Shown here piece by piece: positions 13,216 to 52,312 of a stretch of 64,000 nt of DNA. The notes under the pieces were generated by a model that saw only the letters and a program-made list of their open reading frames with translations, was not told the DNA's origin and ran no database searches. This DNA comes from Candidatus Omnitrophota bacterium (GTDB lineage: Bacteria; Omnitrophota; Gorgyraeia; Zapsychrales; Fredricksoniimonadaceae). The position numbers and the translations under genes were made by a program. Location: assembly GCA_030650275.1 (NCBI GenBank), contig JAUSEK010000023.1, positions 107,581 to 171,580 of the forward strand, in the 5' to 3' direction. Positions within the stretch are counted from its first letter, which is position 1, and each line of letters starts with the position of its first letter.

Positions 13216-13695
13216 ATGGCCAACGAAGTTTACTTGACCCGCGAGGGTTTTCATAAACTGCAAAAACAGCTGGAGACCCTCAAGTCCACCGAACGCCGCA
13301 AGATCGCCAAAGCGATCGGCGAGGCGCGCGCGCAGGGCGACATTTCCGAGAACGCCGAATACGACGCGGCCAAGGAAGCGCAGGCCCACAATGAGACCCG
13401 TGTTGCCGATTTGGAGGCAAAACTGGTCAACGTGCGCATCATCGAGAATGAGAAGATCCCTTCCGACAAGGTGTTCATCGGCGCCATCGTGGCGCTGGAG
13501 GATCTGGACAGCGGTGAAAAAATGACCTACATGCTGGTGTCCCCGGAAGAGGCGAGTTACGAGGAAAAAAAGATCTCGGTGTTTTCCCCCATCGGCAAAG
13601 GGCTTTTGGGCCATAAAGCCAAAGAGACCGTGGAGTTAAAAGTCCCGGCCGGGACACTCAAGTATAAAATTTTAAGCATCAAACGTCCTTCTTAA
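13216..13695 (+). CDS. greA: Transcription elongation factor GreA
   Basis: An N-terminal coiled coil with ..GDISENAEYDAAKE.. is followed by a C-terminal FKBP-like domain. It is 159 aa. Confidence 0.9.
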   Translation: MANEVYLTREGFHKLQKQLETLKSTERRKIAKAIGEARAQGDISENAEYDAAKEAQAHNETRVADLEAKLVNVRIIENEKIPSDKVFIGAIVALEDLDSGEKMTYMLVSPEEASYEEKKISVFSPIGKGLLGHKAKETVELKVPAGTLKYKILSIKRPS

Positions 13696-13865
13696 GCGCA
13701 GGTTCCGCCCACAACATTATCAACGGGTAATACAGTAAGATAAATTTGTCATTTTATCGTATATGGTGTATCATAAAAATGATTTTGTTGCCTCCGCATT
13801 CCCCATGCGGTTAACATAAATTCCCCTAATCAGAAGTTGTTGCTTACGCAAAATAAACCATCATC

Positions 13866-13892
13866 TTTGAGGTTTCAAATTGAAACCTCAAG
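13866..13892. repeat. Perfect 13-bp-arm palindrome CTTGAGGTTTCAA-A-TTGAAACCTCAAG
   Basis: Read directly from the sequence. It lies in a 540-bp ORF-free AT-rich spacer. Confidence 0.8.
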
Positions 13893-13907
13893 TTACCGTG
13901 GATTGTC

Positions 13908-13927
13908 ATTCCCGCGCAGGCGGGAAT
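13908..13927. repeat. Inverted repeat ATTCCC-GCGCAGGC-GGGAAT (dRS3-like architecture)
   Basis: Read directly from the sequence. Confidence 0.7.
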
Positions 13928-13952
13928 CCAAAACATTGACCAAAGGAATACT

Positions 13953-14024
13953 ATGCTCAAAACATTGTCCATCGCCGAATGGCCCATCGACGACCGTCTG
14001 CGGGAAGTAGGTAATTTTACGTAA
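13953..14024 (+). pseudogene. radC (UPF0758) N-terminal remnant
   Basis: The 23-codon ORF MLKTLSIAEWPIDDRLREVGNFT* matches the conserved RadC N-terminal motif (..W/LPxDERPRE(K/R)L..) and then terminates. There is no downstream JAB domain. Confidence 0.35.
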
Positions 14025-14233
14025 CAAGGGGGTAAAATGTTGAATTATTACCTACTTAATGGCTTTAAAAATATGTTTGACCCGGTGATTTGACTTATCA
14101 CGGCCGTAATGATAGAGTGGTCATCACATAGTTCTTCCGGTTCCCCGCCGGAAGTGCGGTTCATACAAACTCCCCTGTTGCAAGCGGTCGTGCCTGTTTT
14201 TTTAAGAATTCTTAATTTTCAAGGGGGCGTGCC

Positions 14234-14779
14234 ATGTCTCAAGAACAAAAGAAGGGGATCCTTGTGCCAGTCGAGATCATCCATAGTAAGATCTATTTAA
14301 TTCGAGGACATAAGGTCATGTTTGATAAGGATTTGGCGGAATTGTATAATGTTGAAACAGGACATCTCAATAGGGCGGTCAGCCGGAATATCGACCGTTT
14401 CCCGGAAGATTTTATGTTCCAACTAACAAAGGAAGAGATGGATTCTTTAAGATGCCAATTTGGCATCTTAAAGAGAGGGCAGCACATTAAGTATTTACCC
14501 TTCGTTTTTACTGAGCAGGGGATCGCTATGCTCTCAAGCGTGCTTAAATCCAAAAGAGCTGTCCAGGTGAACATACAAATTATACGGGTTTTTGTGAGAC
14601 TTAAAGAGCTGATACTTTCCCACAAGGACCTGGCCCGCAAGATTGAGGACCTGGAGCGGAAATTCGGCGACCATGATGCCAAAATCATCCACCTGTTCAA
14701 TGAGATTCGCCGGTTGATGGCCACTTCTGAGCCGCTGGATAATTACAAAAGGACAAAGGTAGGTTTTGTGGTGAATTAA
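14234..14779 (+). CDS. ORF6N-domain DNA-binding protein
   Basis: It matches the conserved ORF6N signature IRGHKVMFDKDLAELYNVETGHLNRAVSRNIDRFPEDFMFQLTKEE...LPFVFTEQGIAMLSSVLKS..AVQVNIQIIRVF. Its GC is lower than that of its neighbours. Confidence 0.7.
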   Translation: MSQEQKKGILVPVEIIHSKIYLIRGHKVMFDKDLAELYNVETGHLNRAVSRNIDRFPEDFMFQLTKEEMDSLRCQFGILKRGQHIKYLPFVFTEQGIAMLSSVLKSKRAVQVNIQIIRVFVRLKELILSHKDLARKIEDLERKFGDHDAKIIHLFNEIRRLMATSEPLDNYKRTKVGFVVN

Positions 14780-14788
14780 GAAACGCTT

Positions 14789-14816
14789 TTGCAAGTGGGC
14801 GGGTTTTCTGTATAAT
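14789..14816 (+). promoter_or_regulatory. Promoter TTGCAA-16-TATAAT ending 6 nt before the ATG at 14823 (leaderless transcript predicted)
   Basis: The hexamers sit at 14789-14794 and 14811-16. The start codon A falls at the expected +1 position. Confidence 0.45.
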
Positions 14817-14822
14817 GCACCC

Positions 14823-15836
14823 ATGATTTCTCTCGGCGTCATCGGTTGCGGTCATTGGGGACCCAACCATGTCCGTGTTTTTTCCCAGTTGACGGCCTCG
14901 CGTGTCGTCCGGTGCGCAGACCCCGACGAAAAACGCCTGGCATTCGTCCGCGCGCTTTTTCCCGCTGTTGAAACCACGACGGACTATACGCGGATCCTCA
15001 AAGATCCCGGCGTTGACGCGGTGGTCATTGCCGCGCCCACTGATCTGCATTTTAAATTGACCAGGGAGGCGCTGGAGGCGGGCAAGCATGTCCTTTGCGA
15101 AAAACCCCTGTCGCTTGACCCAGATGAGTGTCTTAAGCTGGGCGATCTGGCCCGCAAGCAGGGCAAGGTCCTGATGGCCGGGCATGTTTTTGTTTTCAAC
15201 CGGGGCATTGTCAAGATGCGCGAGTACATCCAGGGCGGAGAATTAGGGGCATTGCATTACGCCCATAGCGAGCGCACCAATCTGGGCCCGTTCCGTTACG
15301 ACGTCAATGCCTTGTGGGACCTGGCCCCGCACGACATTTCCATTTTCAATTACCTGTTTGACAGTTGTCCGGTGAGCGTTTCGGCCCGCGGGCATAAATG
15401 CCTGGGCAAGGTCCTGGAAGACCTGGCCTTTGCCACCCTTGATTATCCCAATGATGTCATGGTCAATATCCATGTCAGCTGGCTTGACCCCAGGAAGGTG
15501 CGCCAGATCACCATCGTCGGCGCCCAGAAAATGGTGTCCTGGGACGACCTGGACAACGACGGGTCCATCAAACTTTACGACAAGCACGTTGAGAAAACAT
15601 CCGTTTATTACGAGACCTATGGCGAGTTCCAGCTGTTGTCCCGTGAGGGGAACGTCACCATCCCCAAGATCGGTTTCCACGAGCCGCTCAAGGACCAGGC
15701 GCAGTATTTTATCGACTGTGTTGTCAAAAACGTCCCGCCGGTTTTGGCGGATGCCCAAAGGGCTTATGATGTTGTGCGCACCCTGTGCGCCATCCAGGAG
15801 TCCATGGACCGCAAAGGCGAATTGGTCAAACTATGA
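14823..15836 (+). CDS. Gfo/Idh/MocA-family NAD(P)-dependent sugar oxidoreductase (WbpB-like)
   Basis: It has the N-terminal Rossmann fold GVIGCGHWG, the family's C-terminal domain, and a sugar-modification context. Confidence 0.8.
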   Translation: MISLGVIGCGHWGPNHVRVFSQLTASRVVRCADPDEKRLAFVRALFPAVETTTDYTRILKDPGVDAVVIAAPTDLHFKLTREALEAGKHVLCEKPLSLDPDECLKLGDLARKQGKVLMAGHVFVFNRGIVKMREYIQGGELGALHYAHSERTNLGPFRYDVNALWDLAPHDISIFNYLFDSCPVSVSARGHKCLGKVLEDLAFATLDYPNDVMVNIHVSWLDPRKVRQITIVGAQKMVSWDDLDNDGSIKLYDKHVEKTSVYYETYGEFQLLSREGNVTIPKIGFHEPLKDQAQYFIDCVVKNVPPVLADAQRAYDVVRTLCAIQESMDRKGELVKL

Positions 15837-35106: not shown

Positions 35107-38097
35107 ATGAACCCCTTGTTCCGCCAGATCATTTGCTCTATTTTGACCGTTACGTTTGCGTTAACAGCGGTCCCGCCTCTGCACGCCCAAGAGATTTACC
35201 TGCCCCAACCCGGCGTCCGCATTGGCCTAAGCCCCCAATTCAACCCCGCCGTCCTCAAAGGCCTCAAGGTCCATCCCGACAATCCGTTTCGGTTTGATTT
35301 CATATTGGATACCGGTGACGTAGAGACGCAGCATGCTGCGTCTCTACAAAACGAATCAATGAAATTGATCAAATATTTCCTCGCCTCTTTAACCATCCCC
35401 GAACAAGACCTCTGGGTCAACCTGTCTCCTTATGAGAAGGATAGAATTGTTCCTCAATCCTTTGGTCAAACCGAGATGGGACGTGACCTATTAGCCCAGG
35501 ATTATCTGCTCAAGCAGATCACCGCATCACTAATCTACCCAGAGGATGAATTCGGCAAGATCTTCTGGAAGAGGGTCTATGAAGAAGCCAACAAGAGATT
35601 TGGAACAACCAACATCCCGGTCAATACCTTCAACAAGGTCTGGATCGTGCCAGAGAAGGCCGTAGTCTATGAGAACGCGCAAGCAGGCACGGCGTATGTG
35701 GTAGAAAGCCGATTGAAGGTGATGTTGGAAGAGGATTATCTTGCCTTGGCCAACAACCAACCGCCTACCAGGGGACATGTTCCGCAGAACGTGTCCCCAA
35801 GCACCCTGCCAACCTATCAACCATTGAATCCGAAAGCATCCCAGGGAAATCCCCTTAACGCCTCACCAGAGATTAACGCATTAGGTTCTCAAATAGTCAG
35901 AGAGATTGTCATTCCCGCATTAACCAAAGAAATCAACGAAAACAAGAACTTTGCCCAACTAAGACAGGTCTACAACTCCCTTATCTTGGCCACCTGGTAC
36001 AAGAAGAAGATCAAGGACAGCATTCTCTCTCAAGTGTATGCAGATAAGAATAAGATTTCAGGCCTAACGCCAACCAGGGGACATGTTGCTGGCACCGCTA
36101 GTGCCAGTAACGTGTCCCCAAGCACGTTGCCAACCAACCCAGCATTGAATGCGAAAGCACCCCAGGGAAACCCGCCCAACGATGTCGAAGCCATCTACCA
36201 GCAATACCTCACCGCCTTCAAGAAAGGGGTCTACAACTACATCAAAGAAGAGCAGGACCCTGTGACCCGACAGATGATTCCAAGGAAGTATTTTTCGGGT
36301 GGCGTGAAATTCGGTGATGTGGCGATGGTGACTACAAAGGATGCGGCCATGCTTCCGCAGGTGGCTTCCGATCACTCCGCTATTGTTCAGACAAATTTAA
36401 ATCCAGCTGGCCGGGCGATGGCGGCTATACAGGATTGGGAAAGAGTGCGTGCTCGGGCAAAAATTTCTTTCTTCGTCAAAACATTTTTTATTATGGGAGG
36501 GACGGTTATCGGTGCAAGTGCGTTTAAGCATTACAGTCAGAACGTATACGCGGTTCTCGCAATGGGGATGTTGTACGGCTTCACAACCTTCCGTTTTGTT
36601 ATGGACGACTACTTAATAGGAAAAAGTGAACGTGCTGGGGACTATATTACGATTTCAAGGCAACCGAAGGAAAGGGACTCTTTGGGTATTCATGTCGTCC
36701 TAAATTTAAAGGGGCTGGCCGGACAACAGGAGAACGCATATACACTTATCGCGGAAGATGTGGTTAAGGTTGTTTATGAGCTTGTTGCGAACTGGAAACA
36801 AGAGGGTGGGCTTAAAGAAGTAAAATATATTACAGGAGATTCCCCGTTGCTTGTTCAGGAGAGGAGGGGTATGGGAGCAAGGTTTATGCCTAGCATAAAG
36901 CGTCTGCTCAATAAGATCGGCGTGGGGGATGAGGATATTGAAGTGCACAAACGTCAAAGAACAGATAAAAGGCAGTTTATGTTGTGGAAGATATTGTATC
37001 CGCGTGTATGGATGATAAATAATAAAACATATAGTGGCAGATTCAGGATGAATGTTTCCACGCCCGAGGCTCAGCAGGCCTTGCTTGAAAAATTGAGACC
37101 TGTTTATGATGCGTTGAACGGCGTTGATCCTAATGATCCGGAAAAGATGGCCAAGAAAAGGCGAATTTTGTTCGGCGGGAGTTTGGCGCGGGATGAAGAA
37201 GCCCAAGTGGACGATGCCACAGCCTCCGTGCAGGCCGGGCCGGACGCGGCGATGTCAAGGTCACAACAGTCAGAAAATATTAAAAGCATTGCTGATTGGA
37301 TTGATGCTCTCAAGAAAGACAATTATGTTTTGTTCCACCAAACAATGGATGATTCAGCTGAAAGAATATTACAGAGTTATTTTAAAACCAGCCCTCAAAT
37401 TAATGGGATTGCCGCAGTATATACTCGAGAAATTTTGATGGGAAATCTTCAATGGATGTCTATGTCTGCGGGAGAATTTCAGAGACGTCGTTTGGAACAG
37501 GACGGTCCCCTCGGACAAATTCACAAAGGTGCAAATGCGATAGTTGTTCTTGTTTTTCCAAAAAAAGAATTCGGAGGCGTAGATCGTTTTATCCGACTTT
37601 TCGAAGTCTTTGAGATGATTGATGAAAAAATAGGCGGCGATTGGCTTCAAGAAACAGGAGGTATGGGTGTCCCCAATAAATATGTAGCTGGATATATCCA
37701 TCCCACTGATCAATCCATTGATGTGTATATAAATCCAAATAGCGTTGTTAAACCTTTATCTGATGAGCATTGGGGATTGTTAGGCGTTGGAAATGAAAAT
37801 TTGATTGTTTTAAGGGATCAGGCGATAAAAAGTGTTATGAGCAAACAATCCGGCCCTGGAGGTATTGACTTTAAATCCGACAAGGTGGACAGCGCTTTTG
37901 AAATAAAAAGAGAGCCGGAACAAATGGGGACACGTAACGAGTACATGTCCCCATTTGTCGACCCGGTCATGCTGGAGCAATTACAAAACGCCCCGGGGTT
38001 CGTGCCGGTGATCATCAACATCCAGCCCATGACGGATTTGCGGATGTTTTTGGGGCTTCAAGAAAATAAGCCGGAAAAAGAGGAGGCTGTGTTATAA
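35107..38097 (+). CDS. Large secreted protein (996 aa), paralog A: conserved N-terminal domain + variable middle + C-terminal GGIDFKSDKVDSAF...PGFVPVIIN module
   Basis: It has a Sec signal peptide (…ALTAVPPLHAQE). It is a paralog of the 55409..60343 product and contains an internal tandem repeat. Confidence 0.7.
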   Translation: MNPLFRQIICSILTVTFALTAVPPLHAQEIYLPQPGVRIGLSPQFNPAVLKGLKVHPDNPFRFDFILDTGDVETQHAASLQNESMKLIKYFLASLTIPEQDLWVNLSPYEKDRIVPQSFGQTEMGRDLLAQDYLLKQITASLIYPEDEFGKIFWKRVYEEANKRFGTTNIPVNTFNKVWIVPEKAVVYENAQAGTAYVVESRLKVMLEEDYLALANNQPPTRGHVPQNVSPSTLPTYQPLNPKASQGNPLNASPEINALGSQIVREIVIPALTKEINENKNFAQLRQVYNSLILATWYKKKIKDSILSQVYADKNKISGLTPTRGHVAGTASASNVSPSTLPTNPALNAKAPQGNPPNDVEAIYQQYLTAFKKGVYNYIKEEQDPVTRQMIPRKYFSGGVKFGDVAMVTTKDAAMLPQVASDHSAIVQTNLNPAGRAMAAIQDWERVRARAKISFFVKTFFIMGGTVIGASAFKHYSQNVYAVLAMGMLYGFTTFRFVMDDYLIGKSERAGDYITISRQPKERDSLGIHVVLNLKGLAGQQENAYTLIAEDVVKVVYELVANWKQEGGLKEVKYITGDSPLLVQERRGMGARFMPSIKRLLNKIGVGDEDIEVHKRQRTDKRQFMLWKILYPRVWMINNKTYSGRFRMNVSTPEAQQALLEKLRPVYDALNGVDPNDPEKMAKKRRILFGGSLARDEEAQVDDATASVQAGPDAAMSRSQQSENIKSIADWIDALKKDNYVLFHQTMDDSAERILQSYFKTSPQINGIAAVYTREILMGNLQWMSMSAGEFQRRRLEQDGPLGQIHKGANAIVVLVFPKKEFGGVDRFIRLFEVFEMIDEKIGGDWLQETGGMGVPNKYVAGYIHPTDQSIDVYINPNSVVKPLSDEHWGLLGVGNENLIVLRDQAIKSVMSKQSGPGGIDFKSDKVDSAFEIKREPEQMGTRNEYMSPFVDPVMLEQLQNAPGFVPVIINIQPMTDLRMFLGLQENKPEKEEAVL

Positions 38098-41824: not shown

Positions 41825-41898
41825 TGCCCGGTGGTGTAATGGTAGCACCCGAGAATTTGGATCTCGTTGTCCAGGTTCGAATCCTGGCTGGGCAACCA
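41825..41898 (+). tRNA. tRNA-Gln (anticodon UUG), CCA encoded
   Basis: I folded the cloverleaf by hand. The acceptor stem TGCCCGG pairs with CTGGGCA, the D-arm is GTGT..GCAC and the T-arm is CCAGG-TTCGAAT-CCTGG. The anticodon stem CGAGA pairs with TCTCG, the anticodon loop is ATTTGGA, and the gene ends in ACCA. Confidence 0.85.
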
Positions 41899-41911
41899 CG
41901 TTTGCATATTT

Positions 41912-43150
41912 ATGACTGACGTTCGCGCGATCATTTTAGCCGCCGGAAAAGGGACCCGGATGAAGTCCGAGATCCCCAAGGTTTTGCATCCCGTTGCCGG
42001 CCGTCCGGTCATCGCTTACGTTCTGGACATTGTCCGTTCTTTGAAAACTTTTGTTGTCGTCGGGCACGGGGCCCAAAATGTCCGGGCCGCTTTAGGGGAC
42101 GGACTGACCTATGTTGCGCAGGATCGGCTTTTGGGAACGGCGGATGCCCTGCGCCGCGTGGCGCCGCTCTTGAAAGGGTTTCGCGGGCACGTGCTTGTCT
42201 TGTGCGGGGACACGCCGCTTTTGGAAAAACAGACGGTGCAGCGTTTGCTGGCCCAACACCGTCGCAGTCGGGCCGATGCCACGGTCCTGACCGCCCATAT
42301 CCATGATCCGCGCGGATATGGTCGCATCCTCCGCGATGCCGGCGGCCGTATTAGTGCTATCCGTGAACAAAAAGACGCCAGCCCCCGGGAAGCGCGGATC
42401 ACAGAGATCAACGTCGGGGCATATTGTTTTCAGGCGCAAAAGATTTTTGATGTGTTGAGGCGGGTCAAATGGAATGCCCGCAAAAAAGAATTTTATCTGA
42501 CGGACGTCATCGAGGTTTTATTAGCGCGGGGCGGCCGCGTGGGAACGGTCCTGGCCGGGGATGCTTCATTGGCCTTCGGGATCAACACGCGCGTGGACCT
42601 GGCCCGGGCCGAAAGGGTCATCCGGATGCGCATTTTGAGCAAACTGATGCTGGGGGGCGTGACCATCGTGGATCCGGCAACCACCTATGTGGAAACCGGT
42701 GTCAAGATCGGACGGGACACGGTGATCTATCCGTGCACCGTCATTGACCGGGATGTCGTCGTCGGGAAGAATTGCCGCGTGGGACCTTTTGCCCATTTGC
42801 GGCCCGGCACGCGCGTGGGTGACCACGTTGAGATCGGTAATTTCACGGAAGTGTCGCGCAGCCGTGTGGGCAAAAACGTGTTCATAAAACATTTTTCTTT
42901 TTTGGGTGATGCGGTCCTGGGGGCCAATGTCAATATCGGTGCTGGAACGGTGACGGCGAATTTTGACGGCAGGACCAAGAACAGGACAACAATATCCGAT
43001 GGTGCCTTTATCGGCTCGGGCGCTGTTTTGGTGGCGCCGGTCAGCGTCGGCAAGAAAGCCGTTGTGGGCGCCGGTTCGGTCGTGACAAAGGGTAAGAATA
43101 TTCCGGCCGGGGCTGTGGCGTTCGGTGTCCCGGCCAAGATCGTACGGTAG
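41912..43150 (+). CDS. glmU: Bifunctional UDP-GlcNAc pyrophosphorylase / GlcN-1-P N-acetyltransferase
   Basis: It has the N-terminal NTP-transferase motif ILAAGKGTRM and a C-terminal hexapeptide-repeat domain. Confidence 0.9.
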   Translation: MTDVRAIILAAGKGTRMKSEIPKVLHPVAGRPVIAYVLDIVRSLKTFVVVGHGAQNVRAALGDGLTYVAQDRLLGTADALRRVAPLLKGFRGHVLVLCGDTPLLEKQTVQRLLAQHRRSRADATVLTAHIHDPRGYGRILRDAGGRISAIREQKDASPREARITEINVGAYCFQAQKIFDVLRRVKWNARKKEFYLTDVIEVLLARGGRVGTVLAGDASLAFGINTRVDLARAERVIRMRILSKLMLGGVTIVDPATTYVETGVKIGRDTVIYPCTVIDRDVVVGKNCRVGPFAHLRPGTRVGDHVEIGNFTEVSRSRVGKNVFIKHFSFLGDAVLGANVNIGAGTVTANFDGRTKNRTTISDGAFIGSGAVLVAPVSVGKKAVVGAGSVVTKGKNIPAGAVAFGVPAKIVR

Positions 43151-43185
43151 GGGTACGGCATGCCGTGCCCGTATAGAGGAGATGT

Positions 43186-44142
43186 ATGGCTCAATTAGCG
43201 GTGTTAGGCGGTAATGCCAATCCGGCATTGACGGCGGAGATCTGCGGGATCTTGAAGATCACGCAAACGAAGGTGCTGGTGGACCGTTTCTCCGAGGGCG
43301 AGATCCGCGTGCAGATCAAGGAGAACATCCGCGGCAGGGACGTTTTTATCGTCCAGCCGACATGCCAGCCGGTCAACGACAATATCATGGAATTGCTGAT
43401 CCTCATCGACGCGGCCCGCAGGGCTTCCGCCGACAGGATCACCGCGGTGCTGCCGTATTACGGTTACGCCCGCCAGGACCGCAAGGACCAGCCGCGCGTG
43501 CCGATCACGGCAAAGCTGGTGGCGAACATCATTGTCGCGGCCGGCGCCAACCGCGTGCTGACCATGGACCTGCATGCCAGCCAGCTGCAGGGATTCTTTG
43601 ATATTCCCGTCGACCATTTGTATGCCATTGACGTTCTTTCCAATTATTTCAAGGACAAAAATTTGTACGGACCGGACATTGTTGTTGTTTCTCCCGATGT
43701 TGGGGGCTTAAAAATGGCCCGGGCCTACGCGAAACGCCTGCACGCGGGTCTGGCCATCGTGGACAAGCGCCGCATGAGCCCGGATAAGACCGAAGTCATG
43801 CACATCCTCGGTGAGGTGAGCGGCAAGAACGTGGTCCTGGTCGATGATATTCTGGCCACGGCCAGCTCGATCATTGAAGGGGTGACGGCATTGAAGGCCA
43901 ACGGGGCCAAATCCATTTACGCGGCGGTCAGTCATGGCGTGTTGTCCGGCCCGGCGAAACAGCGCATCCGCGACTGCCAGGACTTGAAGGAAGTGGTCAT
44001 TACCAATACGATCCCCCTGGCGGACGCGGGGAGCAATCCCAAGATCAAACAGCTTTCCGTAGCGCCCTTATTGGCGGAAGCCATCGCGCGCACCCATAAC
44101 GGGGAATCTATCAGCAGTTTATTTGAAGAGATCCGTAACTAG
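43186..44142 (+). CDS. prs: Ribose-phosphate pyrophosphokinase
   Basis: It has the PRPP synthetase motifs, including the DLHA and PRPP-binding loops. Confidence 0.95.
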   Translation: MAQLAVLGGNANPALTAEICGILKITQTKVLVDRFSEGEIRVQIKENIRGRDVFIVQPTCQPVNDNIMELLILIDAARRASADRITAVLPYYGYARQDRKDQPRVPITAKLVANIIVAAGANRVLTMDLHASQLQGFFDIPVDHLYAIDVLSNYFKDKNLYGPDIVVVSPDVGGLKMARAYAKRLHAGLAIVDKRRMSPDKTEVMHILGEVSGKNVVLVDDILATASSIIEGVTALKANGAKSIYAAVSHGVLSGPAKQRIRDCQDLKEVVITNTIPLADAGSNPKIKQLSVAPLLAEAIARTHNGESISSLFEEIRN

Positions 44143-51277: not shown

Positions 51278-52312
51278 ATGTCCCATTCCGTTGCCGATAT
51301 CGCGCGTTGGGTCGGCGGCGAGATCACCGGCGATGGGAAAGCCCTGATCACCGGATGCGCCGGCATCGAAGAGGCGCAAAAAAGTGATATCACTTTTTTG
51401 GCCGACCGGAAATACGCGTCTTCGGCCAAGGCCACCCGGGCGGGTGCCATCATTGTTCCCCGGCAGGTTGTTTTGCCGGGGAAAACTTTTATACGGGTGG
51501 ATAACCCGTCGCTGGCTTTCATTGAAGTGATGCGCCGGCTTTTGCCAGATCCTTCCCGCCATTTTCCTAAAGGCATACATCCAACGGCCGTCGTCGCCAA
51601 AGATGCTGTATTGGGCAAAGGCGTCGCCCTCGGCCCTTATACGGTCGTGGAAAGCGGCGCGTCTTTGGGTGAAGGGACGGTCGTGCACGGCCATTGTTAT
51701 GTCGGGCCCGGGACTTCCGTCGGGAAAAATTGCCTTTTGTATCCCGGGGTCATCCTGCGCGAGCATATCACGGTCGGTGCCCGGGTCATCATCCAGCCCG
51801 GGGCTGTCATCGGTTCCGACGGGTATGGCTTTGTGACTGTGGAGGGCAAACACGTCAAATTGCCGCAGGTGGGCACGGTTGTCATCGGGGATGATGTCGA
51901 GATCGGCTCCAACGTCACCATTGACCGCGCGCGTTTTGACAAGACCGTCATCGGTGAGGGGACCAAGATCGACAATCTTGTCCAGATCGCGCACAACGTC
52001 ATCATCGGCAAACATTGTTTGATCGTGGCCCAGGCCGGTGTTTCGGGCAGCACGCGCATCGGCGATCATGTCATTTTGGCGGGCCAGGCCGGTATCGTCG
52101 GGCATTTGACCATCGGCGACGGCGCCGTTGTCACGGCCCAGTCCGGGGTCAGCAAGGACATCAAGGCGGGCGAACAGGTGTTCGGGTCGCCGGCGCAGCC
52201 CATCAAAGACGCGTTTCGGGCCCGTGCCCATATCCAGCGGCTGGACCATTATGCGAAGACCATTAAAGACCTGAAGAAAAGGATCGAGGACCTGGAAAAG
52301 AAGGTCCGTTGA
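51278..52312 (+). CDS. lpxD: UDP-3-O-acylglucosamine N-acyltransferase
   Basis: It has an N-terminal LpxD domain and hexapeptide repeats. Confidence 0.9.
   Translation: MSHSVADIARWVGGEITGDGKALITGCAGIEEAQKSDITFLADRKYASSAKATRAGAIIVPRQVVLPGKTFIRVDNPSLAFIEVMRRLLPDPSRHFPKGIHPTAVVAKDAVLGKGVALGPYTVVESGASLGEGTVVHGHCYVGPGTSVGKNCLLYPGVILREHITVGARVIIQPGAVIGSDGYGFVTVEGKHVKLPQVGTVVIGDDVEIGSNVTIDRARFDKTVIGEGTKIDNLVQIAHNVIIGKHCLIVAQAGVSGSTRIGDHVILAGQAGIVGHLTIGDGAVVTAQSGVSKDIKAGEQVFGSPAQPIKDAFRARAHIQRLDHYAKTIKDLKKRIEDLEKKVR

Follow-up and report, generated by a model that had tools for sequence, protein, structure and literature searches.

What is a 540-bp spacer, devoid of long open reading frames (ORFs), studded with palindromes and ending at an ORF6N-domain gene: the scar of a mobile element, a noncoding RNA locus, or something else? 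The question is raised by the region downstream of greA in a 64,000-nt stretch of Candidatus Omnitrophota contig JAUSEK010000023.1 (positions 107,581 to 171,580), hereafter called the window, whose numbering is used throughout. An earlier note, made from the sequence alone, had proposed for 13696-14800 either a decayed mobile-element remnant or a noncoding RNA locus. We arrived at a partly different reading, which has four parts: the region is a cassette slot with strain-variable content; its first half is a collapsed ORF6N-radC unit; its second half is an intact ORF6N cassette; and the palindrome found inside the ORF6N gene may be an operator for the protein which this gene encodes. Taken jointly, these four parts have in our estimate a probability of about 0.72.

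A slot with variable content downstream of greA

The slot and its two flanks are the following.
13216-13695, plus strand: greA, left flank of the slot (Pfam GreA_GreB_N and GreA_GreB matches).
13696-14777, no strand: slot with strain-variable content, between greA and the Gfo/Idh/MocA gene.
14778-15836, plus strand: right flank, with a promoter-like site (14789-14816) and a Gfo/Idh/MocA oxidoreductase gene (14823-15836), from Pfam and a promoter scan.

The Gfo/Idh/MocA sugar oxidoreductase gene heads a glycosyltransferase cluster. The boundaries of the slot were given by the sister genome GCA_041643055.1 (loci L165 and L326). The left flank is 93.4% identical to L326 at the nucleotide level over 7 kb, and the homology ends exactly at 13695, the last base of the greA stop codon; it restarts within the stop codon of ORF6N, at its second base (14778), and the right flank is 90.6% identical over 3.6 kb. 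Between these two points L326 carries 6.8 kb of different content: a 198-bp leader with motif A (see below), two palindromes around a hairpin of the dRS3/NTS repeat type, an ORF6N gene 74% identical to that of the window, and a 1979-aa glycosyltransferase gene (~6 kb). An inverted ATTCCC...GGGAAT hairpin is found there ~20 nt before the right-flank homology resumes. The sister genome has no counterpart to 13696-14129, yet it has an ORF6N gene at the same post-greA position. In a more distant genome (L003, GreA 81% identical), two unrelated minus-strand genes, of 434 and 137 aa, stand at the same place. L003 was the only syntenic case among 80 GreA loci from the genome scan, and the matches of a metagenome scan with the Gfo protein did not exceed 53% identity and gave no synteny that could be used.

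The window, L326 and L003 have the same flanking genes, differing content and sharp boundaries (13695/13696 and 14777/14778 in the window). Because the sister and L003 genomes hold other content between the same flanks, the interval 13696-14777 is a slot for replaceable cassettes, set between two chromosomal genes that are conserved, and not the scar of a prophage or of an integrative and conjugative element (ICE). The interval singled out by the earlier note coincides almost exactly with this slot. The comparison with related genomes that the note had suggested, in search of an intact element downstream of greA, gave no such element; what it gave was the replaceable content of L326 and L003.

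An integrated mobile element would be recognized by a gene for a recombinase or a transposase and by terminal or attachment repeats at its two ends; the slot has none of these. Among the ORFs of the window, none in or next to the slot codes for an integrase or a transposase; there is no tRNA or transfer-messenger RNA attachment site near the locus (the only tRNA of the window is at 41825); and no direct repeat across both boundaries, nor any duplicated sequence at them, was found. On each side the boundary coincides with a stop codon. The lower G+C content that had been reported for the region is real: 0.37-0.48 over 13600-14800, versus about 0.50-0.60 in most flanking windows.

In Neisseria, Snyder and Saunders reportedly described minimal mobile elements, in which a fixed pair of conserved genes encloses cassettes that differ between strains and are exchanged by recombination in the flanks. 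The slot is like them in its conserved flanks (greA and Gfo), its three contents in three genomes, its sharp boundaries and its lack of a recombinase. It is unlike them in that, within a comparison of three genomes, two of the three contents share ORF6N as first gene. Natural transformation is, to our knowledge, not known for this Omnitrophota organism. The content of the slot would be turned over by homologous recombination in the conserved flanks, and hairpin-forming repeats would be the end points of deletions within it. There is nothing unusual in the scar itself, a variable cassette slot of a kind known from Neisseria, with decay mediated by repeats.

A collapsed ORF6N-radC unit in the spacer

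The slot is made of two tandem units, Unit 1 (13738-14006, collapsed) and Unit 2 (14090-14779, intact). As the earlier note had stated, the 538 bp of 13696-14233 are free of ORFs of 60 aa or more. The only ORF of this size touching the interval is a 63-aa frame (14109-14300), which is in another frame than the ORF6N gene, overlaps its leader and start, and is probably not a gene.

The key to Unit 1 was the reference locus L163, where an ORF6N gene (78% identical to that of the window) is directly followed by a full radC gene, coding for a RadC protein with UPF0758_N and JAB domains, and then by hsdR, hsdS and hsdM (type I restriction-modification). Three blocks of Unit 1 are collinear with this locus: 13738-13848 with L163 727-838, upstream of the L163 ORF6N gene; 13867-13901 with L163 1090-1124, in the middle of the ORF6N coding sequence; and 13968-14006 with L163 1433-1471, the first codons of radC, with 90% nucleotide identity over 39 nt. 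By this collinearity, Unit 1 is a collapsed module, a dead ORF6N-radC cassette. Its features, and the element that follows it, are listed below.
13746-13774, plus strand: promoter-like site TTGTCA-17-TATCAT, overlapping the degenerated hairpin of the next line (scan score 10/12).
13747-13772, plus strand: degenerated dRS3/NTS-type hairpin, recognized by column-for-column alignment with the intact L163 hairpin TGTCATTCCAGCGCAAGCGGGAATC.
13794-13843, plus strand: leader motif A, copy 1, made of a hairpin (CCGCAT-TCCCC-ATGCGG) and then GGTTAACATAAATTCCCCTAATCAGAAGTTGTTGC.
13867-13891, plus strand: relic of an ORF6N-internal palindrome, with 12-nt arms (TTGAGGTTTCAA-A-TTGAAACCTCAA) and the in-frame reading SLRFQIETSS.
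13898-13931, plus strand: what is left of an ORF6N gene at its 3' end (GTGGAT), joined to a hairpin of the dRS3/NTS type, TGTCATTCCCGCGCAGGCGGGAATCCAA, whose dRS3 core is at 13908-13927.
13953-14024, plus strand: radC 5' fragment, with the peptide MLKTLSIAEWPIDDRLREVGNFT followed by a stop (18 homologous codons, then 5 unrelated codons and the stop).
14005-14057, no strand: 53-nt inverted-repeat mini-element, AAGTAGGTAAT...ATTACCTACTT, with perfect 11-nt arms (fold z -3.6).

Each of these pieces has its counterpart in a live locus. Copy 1 of motif A (hairpin fold z -4.1) is 90% identical to L163 784-833, upstream of an intact ORF6N gene. The palindrome at 13867-13891 (fold z -5.5) shows 93% identity over 29 nt to the palindrome within the L163 ORF6N coding sequence, and no shuffle of the window matched it. 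It had been described with 13-bp arms; the palindrome is genuine, but its arms are of 12 nt around a central A, the next outward pair (13866/13892) being T.G. For the segment 13898-13931 the counterpart, with 97% identity, is the 3' end of the ORF6N gene of L165 in the sister genome, a gene in which the same hairpin is inserted.

The radC start remnant, also mentioned in the earlier note, was confirmed by a pairwise BLASTP comparison with the N-terminus of the full L163 RadC (E 3e-7, on the 18 residues that remain); the 23-aa peptide alone had no Pfam match. The DNA homology to L163 ends at 14006, no further radC similarity was found between 14025 and 14233, and the C-terminal JAB (metalloprotease-like) domain is absent, as the frame stops at 14024: this piece is a gene fragment, not a radC gene. 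The mini-element starts exactly where the radC homology stops, and a homologue with the same ends forms a discrete copy in an unrelated locus (L196, 5870-5922). The 540-bp spacer therefore consists of a dead cassette (13738-14006), then the mini-element, then the control region of a live cassette.

The intact ORF6N cassette

Unit 2 has the organization of a complete gene with its upstream signals.
14090-14118, plus strand: promoter-like site TTGACT-17-TAGAGT, with TG before the second hexamer; the hexamers are kept upstream of the L198 and L199 ORF6N genes.
14125-14233, plus strand: leader (~110 nt) with copy 2 of motif A, comprising a hairpin (14134-14154), a CTCCCC box (14170-14175) and a Shine-Dalgarno sequence, AAGGGGG (14221-14227).
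14234-14779, plus strand: intact ORF6N-domain gene, 181 aa (PF10543, E 2.6e-36).

The assignment of the gene to ORF6N, already made in the earlier note, is secure: the PF10543 score is 124.2 bits for a cut-off of 27.8, and the match covers profile positions 1-86 of 86, i.e. a full-length domain. The family is very large, with at least 8000 homologues in one search. The AlphaFold2 (AF2) model of the protein (pLDDT, the predicted local distance difference test score, 71.5) has a small N-terminal domain of the DNA-binding type and one C-terminal helix of ~55 residues (107-162). A Foldseek search against solved structures gave no significant match; the best, for the N-terminal domain, was a fragment of a Ski-like protein (probability 0.92, E 0.14), which we take to be a winged-helix-like Dachshund-homology domain. 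The modelled architecture would be suited to dimeric binding of dyad DNA.

The conservation of the unit is not limited to the gene. Over 14090-14773 there is a 70% match with L198-L200, which includes the region upstream of the ATG, so that promoter and leader are conserved as well; 14130-14176 is 89% identical to L165. The hairpin CTTCCGG-TTCCCCG-CCGGAAG (-7.6 kcal/mol, z -3.4) exists as had been noticed, at 14134-14154 and not around 14140-14160 as first reported. The CTCCCC box is invariant, and the consensus fold pairs it with the Shine-Dalgarno sequence, with one compensatory pair among four leaders; the single-sequence fold of the leader was no better than shuffles (z -1.1).

As to the relatives of the gene, the best match in viral contigs is 54% identical, the closest relatives (60-78%) were not found there, and a search of isolate phages returned five weak matches; the ORF6N subfamily nearest to the window gene is, by these comparisons, chromosomal. 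More generally, ORF6N relatives are also present on viral contigs and conjugative plasmids. Their neighbours at other loci are restriction-modification, toxin-antitoxin, Bro-N, integrase or transposase genes, as expected for the family. On Treponema saccharophilum plasmid pTS1 (L331), for example, ORF6N has the gene of a DNA methyltransferase on one side and that of a restriction endonuclease S subunit on the other, and elsewhere a DpnI-type nuclease gene (L194) or a D12-class methyltransferase gene (L196) is at most about 2-2.5 kb away. In L198 (3501-4826, from SRR13727527, the sample of the window itself), a second ORF6N gene, 66% identical and with the same leader motif, is directly followed by a gene for a 239-aa Y1_Tnp (IS200-like) protein, which could be a REP-associated tyrosine transposase (REP: repetitive extragenic palindromic).

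A palindrome conserved inside ORF6N genes

The palindrome relic of Unit 1 has a complete equivalent within the live gene.
14444-14474, plus strand: ORF6N intragenic perfect palindrome, TCTTTAAGATGCCAA-T-TTGGCATCTTAAAGA, with 15-nt arms (codons SLRCQFGILKR, fold z -7.0).

Perfect palindromes with arms of at least 12 nt are rare, since the 64 kb contain four of them; two of the four are within this 1.1-kb locus. That they are of the same kind had escaped the earlier note, as had the nature of the ATTCCC hairpin discussed below. A palindrome was present at the same codon position (about 70-80) in every ORF6N gene collected. It occurs in ORF6N genes of at least seven phyla, and among isolates, which represent six phyla, in Bacteroides ovatus, two Legionella species, Sulfuricurvum, Butyrivibrio, Treponema and Haliovirga (plasmids). 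By comparison, about 1.31 Mb of unrelated loci contained one such palindrome.

Covariation was analysed on 24 distinct ORF6N genes, with 39-78% protein identity to that of the window. Pairing was found in 88% of the cells, and changes on both sides in 11 of the 16 pairs. The number of double-change cells was 80 versus 30.9 in shuffles, a value that 0/500 shuffles reached, and the covariation score was 0.526 versus about 0.07-0.17 with slid partners. The paired changes alter the protein, the encoded segment being for instance LRSQFATS, LRFQFGTS, LRCQFGIL, LKSQFVIS or LTSQIVMS. As counted from the alignment, the choice among synonymous Ser codons foretells which amino acid is found three codons later: TCG goes with Ala GCG (7/7) and TCA with Val GTG (6/8). 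The codons of the centre are CAA for Gln (32/32), TTT for Phe (18/18) and ATT for Ile (11/12), versus 58%, 73% and 41% of the synonyms elsewhere in the same genes. A test at the protein level, on 120 homologues, went in the same direction: a proportion of 0.63 of the motifs could be encoded by a perfect palindrome, versus 0.34 when the right halves were shuffled. The pairing of residues F/C with G/E and of S with A/V/G fits the DNA rule, as evidence weaker than the DNA alignment. The AF2 model places the encoded residues (71-80) where a helix ends and in a loop modelled with low confidence.

Is this symmetry a property of the RNA or of the DNA? Single mismatches, counted over the alignments, were A.C (5), G.T (5) and G.G (1). 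An RNA hairpin should favour G.T, and A.C is as frequent; furthermore, the symmetry reaches the central base, where the loop of an RNA could vary freely. Both observations make an RNA hairpin less likely. Because of this parity between A.C and G.T and of the symmetry up to the centre, the alignments point to a dyad at the DNA level rather than to an RNA hairpin. In the searchable literature on ORF6N, KilA-N, palindromes or dyad symmetry, we found no description of the intragenic palindrome or of the extragenic twins presented below.

Two loci showed multiple versions of the palindrome. In L168 (3394-6265, GCA_043742785.1), four ORF6N genes and a fifth gene of similar size form a tandem array, in which no two ORF6N genes share the same version of the palindrome; a PIN-domain gene is located upstream on the same contig. 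In the ORF6N gene of the viral contig L169, the palindrome at the usual codons is degenerate (about 2680-2710), and a second, near-perfect one is found ~50 nt further inside the coding sequence (about 2735-2765), with a single mismatch near its outer edge.

Extragenic copies and a putative self-operator

Additional palindromes outside the ORF6N coding sequence were present in about 10 of 22 loci, most of them 12-343 nt upstream of the start and two downstream of the stop. In L175, Legionella pneumophila and Butyrivibrio, the extragenic copy has exactly the half-site of the gene itself. The same-half-site twin is 6 nt after the stop codon on the conjugative plasmid of L. pneumophila (L328, 868-894 and 1582-1606), and 13 nt before the start codon on Butyrivibrio plasmid pCY186 (L330, 614-646 and 868-894).

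To account for these data, we propose that the ORF6N protein may be a dimeric DNA-binding regulator, for which the intragenic palindrome would be a putative operator within its own gene, so that gene and site move as a unit. The extragenic palindromes would be extra operators, or left-overs of dead copies as at 13867-13891. In its strongest form, this proposal says that each ORF6N gene carries at fixed codons a selected 25-33 bp dyad, which is the predicted recognition site of ORF6N, as duplex or as cruciform, and that gene and site form one portable self-recognizing unit; we hold this form to be tentative, and rather doubtful as it stands. To the same tentative extent, the dyad, which encodes a segment of the Leu-Arg-x-Gln-Phe-x-Thr-Ser type, may have kept its complementarity at the expense of the protein sequence.

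There is a precedent for such an arrangement: the O gene of phage lambda contains ori-lambda, with dyad-symmetric binding sites within the gene of the DNA-binding protein. In both cases a dyad-symmetric site is inside the gene for a DNA-binding protein (a predicted one for ORF6N), and gene and site travel together. The differences are that lambda has four iterons, which function in the initiation of replication, whereas ORF6N genes have a single palindrome, perfect and 25-33 nt long, always at the same codons; and that the lambda sites bind the O protein, whereas the binding of ORF6N to its palindrome is a prediction. We know of no role of the ORF6N family in replication.

A dRS3/NTS-type hairpin

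The motif ATTCCC-N8-GGGAAT was found at 13908-13927 as announced in the earlier note; it is exact and present in a single copy in the window, for 0.01 expected by chance. Two descriptions in the literature are relevant to it. In PMC3733652, the CGTC-1 class of REP repeats is defined by an 8-bp stem, a 4-nt loop and a CCA tail. In PMC11893778, the NTS repeat has a 28-nt consensus with one mismatch allowed; in Neisseria, it is a cleavage target, as single-stranded DNA, of SsnA, a nuclease of the GIY-YIG type, and it clusters around variable genes. The motif of the window agrees exactly with the dRS3 repeat of Neisseria. The hairpin of the window has the CGTC-1 geometry, with an 8-bp stem (ATTCCCGC/GCGGGAAT) beginning with AT, a GCAG loop and a CCA tail. 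Aligned with the NTS consensus CGTCATTCCCGCGMAVGCGGGAATCYRG, TGTCATTCCCGCGCAGGCGGGAATCCAA matches at 26 of 28 positions, both mismatches being outermost; with two mismatches where the authors allow one, it is NTS-like and not a strict NTS. Judging by these alignments, the hairpin belongs to a known repeat type, dRS3/NTS, of the CGTC-1 class.

Likeness to the repeats of Neisseria goes beyond the core. The hairpin sequence is the same (ATTCCCGCGCAGGCGGGAAT), with GTC upstream, a CCA tail downstream, an 8-bp stem and a 4-nt loop, and in both cases a mosaic of short repeats edges strain-variable genes; in the sister, copies are present on both sides of the cargo. Differences are the tag, TGTC in the window instead of CGTC, the 26/28 match to NTS, and the density: one intact copy per 64 kb here versus hundreds per Neisseria genome. 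In addition to the intact copy, the 64 kb contain the degenerated one of Unit 1, and the sister locus has three copies in 7 kb. Omnitrophota does not appear among the phyla listed for these repeats in the available parts of the two sources (PMC11893778; PMC3733652).

The exact core of the hairpin was found in at least 120 viral-contig stretches, and the hairpin recurs in ORF6N loci. In Logan, the public assembly of the short reads of the source sample (SRR13727527), one contig ends (L001) and the next one starts (L002) on it, with a 30-nt overlap at 13901-13930. The break points either to a repeated 30-mer or to differences between strains at this joint. Because of the viral-contig copies, the recurrence in ORF6N loci and the break on the 30-mer, the hairpin is probably a repeat in this organism too, in which it could play the role of a target for a single-stranded DNA nuclease and mark variable genes.

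The window contains other palindromic sequences. At 35320-35347, a perfect palindrome with 14-nt arms (GTAGAGACGCAGCA/TGCTGCGTCTCTAC) and the GTAG tag of REP repeats is in frame within a 996-aa ORF (35107-38097). At 43148-43173, a near-palindrome, TAGGGGTACGGCATGCCGTGCCCGTA, resembles GTAG-type REP repeats and is located where one plus-strand ORF (41867-43150) gives way to the next (43186-44142). A further perfect palindrome, with 12-nt arms (CAAAAAAGTGAT/ATCACTTTTTTG), is at 51377-51400.

Weighing the readings

Several points weigh against the reading proposed here. Syntenic relatives amount to two, too small a number to give the direction of events (loss or gain). The break of the Logan assembly at 13901-13930 could reflect strain heterogeneity at this very joint. 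A motif scan of the 64-kb window disclosed no ssn (GIY-YIG) gene. The extragenic palindromes in the window, L165, L170 and L201 differ from the half-site of the neighbouring gene, and own-versus-other similarity is weak over the set (6.31 versus 5.55 of 9 positions; 210/5000 permutations reach the observed mean). Full complementarity at the variable positions exceeds what a dimeric protein needs. Lastly, the palindrome also fits recognition of a cruciform or hairpin, including by another factor, as it fits a non-selective correction of quasi-palindromes by template switching.

Other explanations of the locus have to be compared with ours. One is that nothing has decayed and that the 540-bp spacer is a working regulatory region of the ORF6N gene, with 13867-13891 as a distal operator, both copies of motif A as active promoters or leaders, and the 23-codon radC-like ORF as a translated leader peptide. 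In its favour, motif A copy 1 has been kept at 90% while the hairpin just before it degenerated; the radC fragment retains an AAGGA-type ribosome-binding site and an ATG, extragenic palindromes of the same class exist upstream of ORF6N genes at several loci, and L165 has a live leader with motif A, palindrome and NTS hairpin in the same order. However, the conserved blocks are collinear with a coding ORF6N-radC module, including 6 nt of the ORF6N 3' end and 39 nt of radC, the half-site of 13867-13891 matches an L163-type gene and not the neighbouring one, and the sister does without the whole of 13696-14129 and still has its ORF6N gene. We consider this explanation unlikely. Another proposal makes of motif A (13794-13843 and 14134-14176) a structured small RNA, or a leader resembling a riboswitch, and of the locus mainly a noncoding RNA locus. 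It is very unlikely: Rfam has no matching family, the leader folds no better than its shuffles (z -1.1), the consensus fold of four sequences has one compensatory pair, and all copies of the motif that were found adjoin the closest ORF6N alleles. What the proposal has in its favour is that the motif stands upstream of ORF6N genes in four distinct loci, twice in the window, with a TTCCCC-loop hairpin whose stem sequence differs between copies (and includes a G.U pair in the L198 copy, as read from the alignment) and with an invariant CUCCCC box predicted to pair with the Shine-Dalgarno sequence. The Rfam scan advocated by the earlier note, run on 13500-15000 with E values up to 10, gave chance-level matches and none below E=0.6; the best, FtrB, scored 22.8 bits for a gathering score of 66 and rested only on the dRS3-type hairpin. 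The noncoding RNA locus put forward there was not borne out by these results.

There remains the suggestion that the slot is the last remnant of a prophage, an ICE or another self-mobile element inserted downstream of greA. RadC and ORF6N domains are common on mobile elements, ORF6N relatives are found in viral contigs and on conjugative plasmids and, at other loci, beside restriction-modification, toxin-antitoxin, integrase or transposase genes, and the G+C content is below that of the flanks. Yet the slot is without integrase, transposase, tRNA attachment site or flanking direct repeat; its boundaries are at stop codons on both sides, without duplicated sequence; viral contigs, with a best match at 54%, yielded none of the closest ORF6N relatives (60-78%); and the sister genome has an ORF6N gene at the same position with different cargo. 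We see hardly any chance that this suggestion is right. In the decayed mobile-element remnant of the earlier note, the decay was well seen, as an ORF6N-radC module collinear with L163 did lose most of its gene material; the mobile element was not, for want of integrase, transposase, attachment site and repeats.

Significance of the slot and of the palindrome

Under the preferred reading, i.e. a cassette slot with a collapsed and an intact ORF6N unit, the locus extends to Omnitrophota the reach of dRS3/NTS-type hairpins and their tie to strain-variable genes. It has a practical side: hairpin repeats break short-read assemblies here, and cassette content is easily mis-assembled as a result.

The conserved palindrome inside ORF6N genes is the most interesting result. 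In a very large and poorly understood family, it gives a testable handle on ORF6N binding and regulation. If the self-recognition proposal is true, the extragenic twins, paralogue arrays such as that of L168 and relics such as 13867-13891 would be parts of a cross-recognition network, a possible use of which may be the silencing, by chromosomal ORF6N copies, of incoming ORF6N-type genes of phages and plasmids. The palindrome would also be a clear case of a constraint at the DNA level overriding the constraint at the protein level across a whole family.

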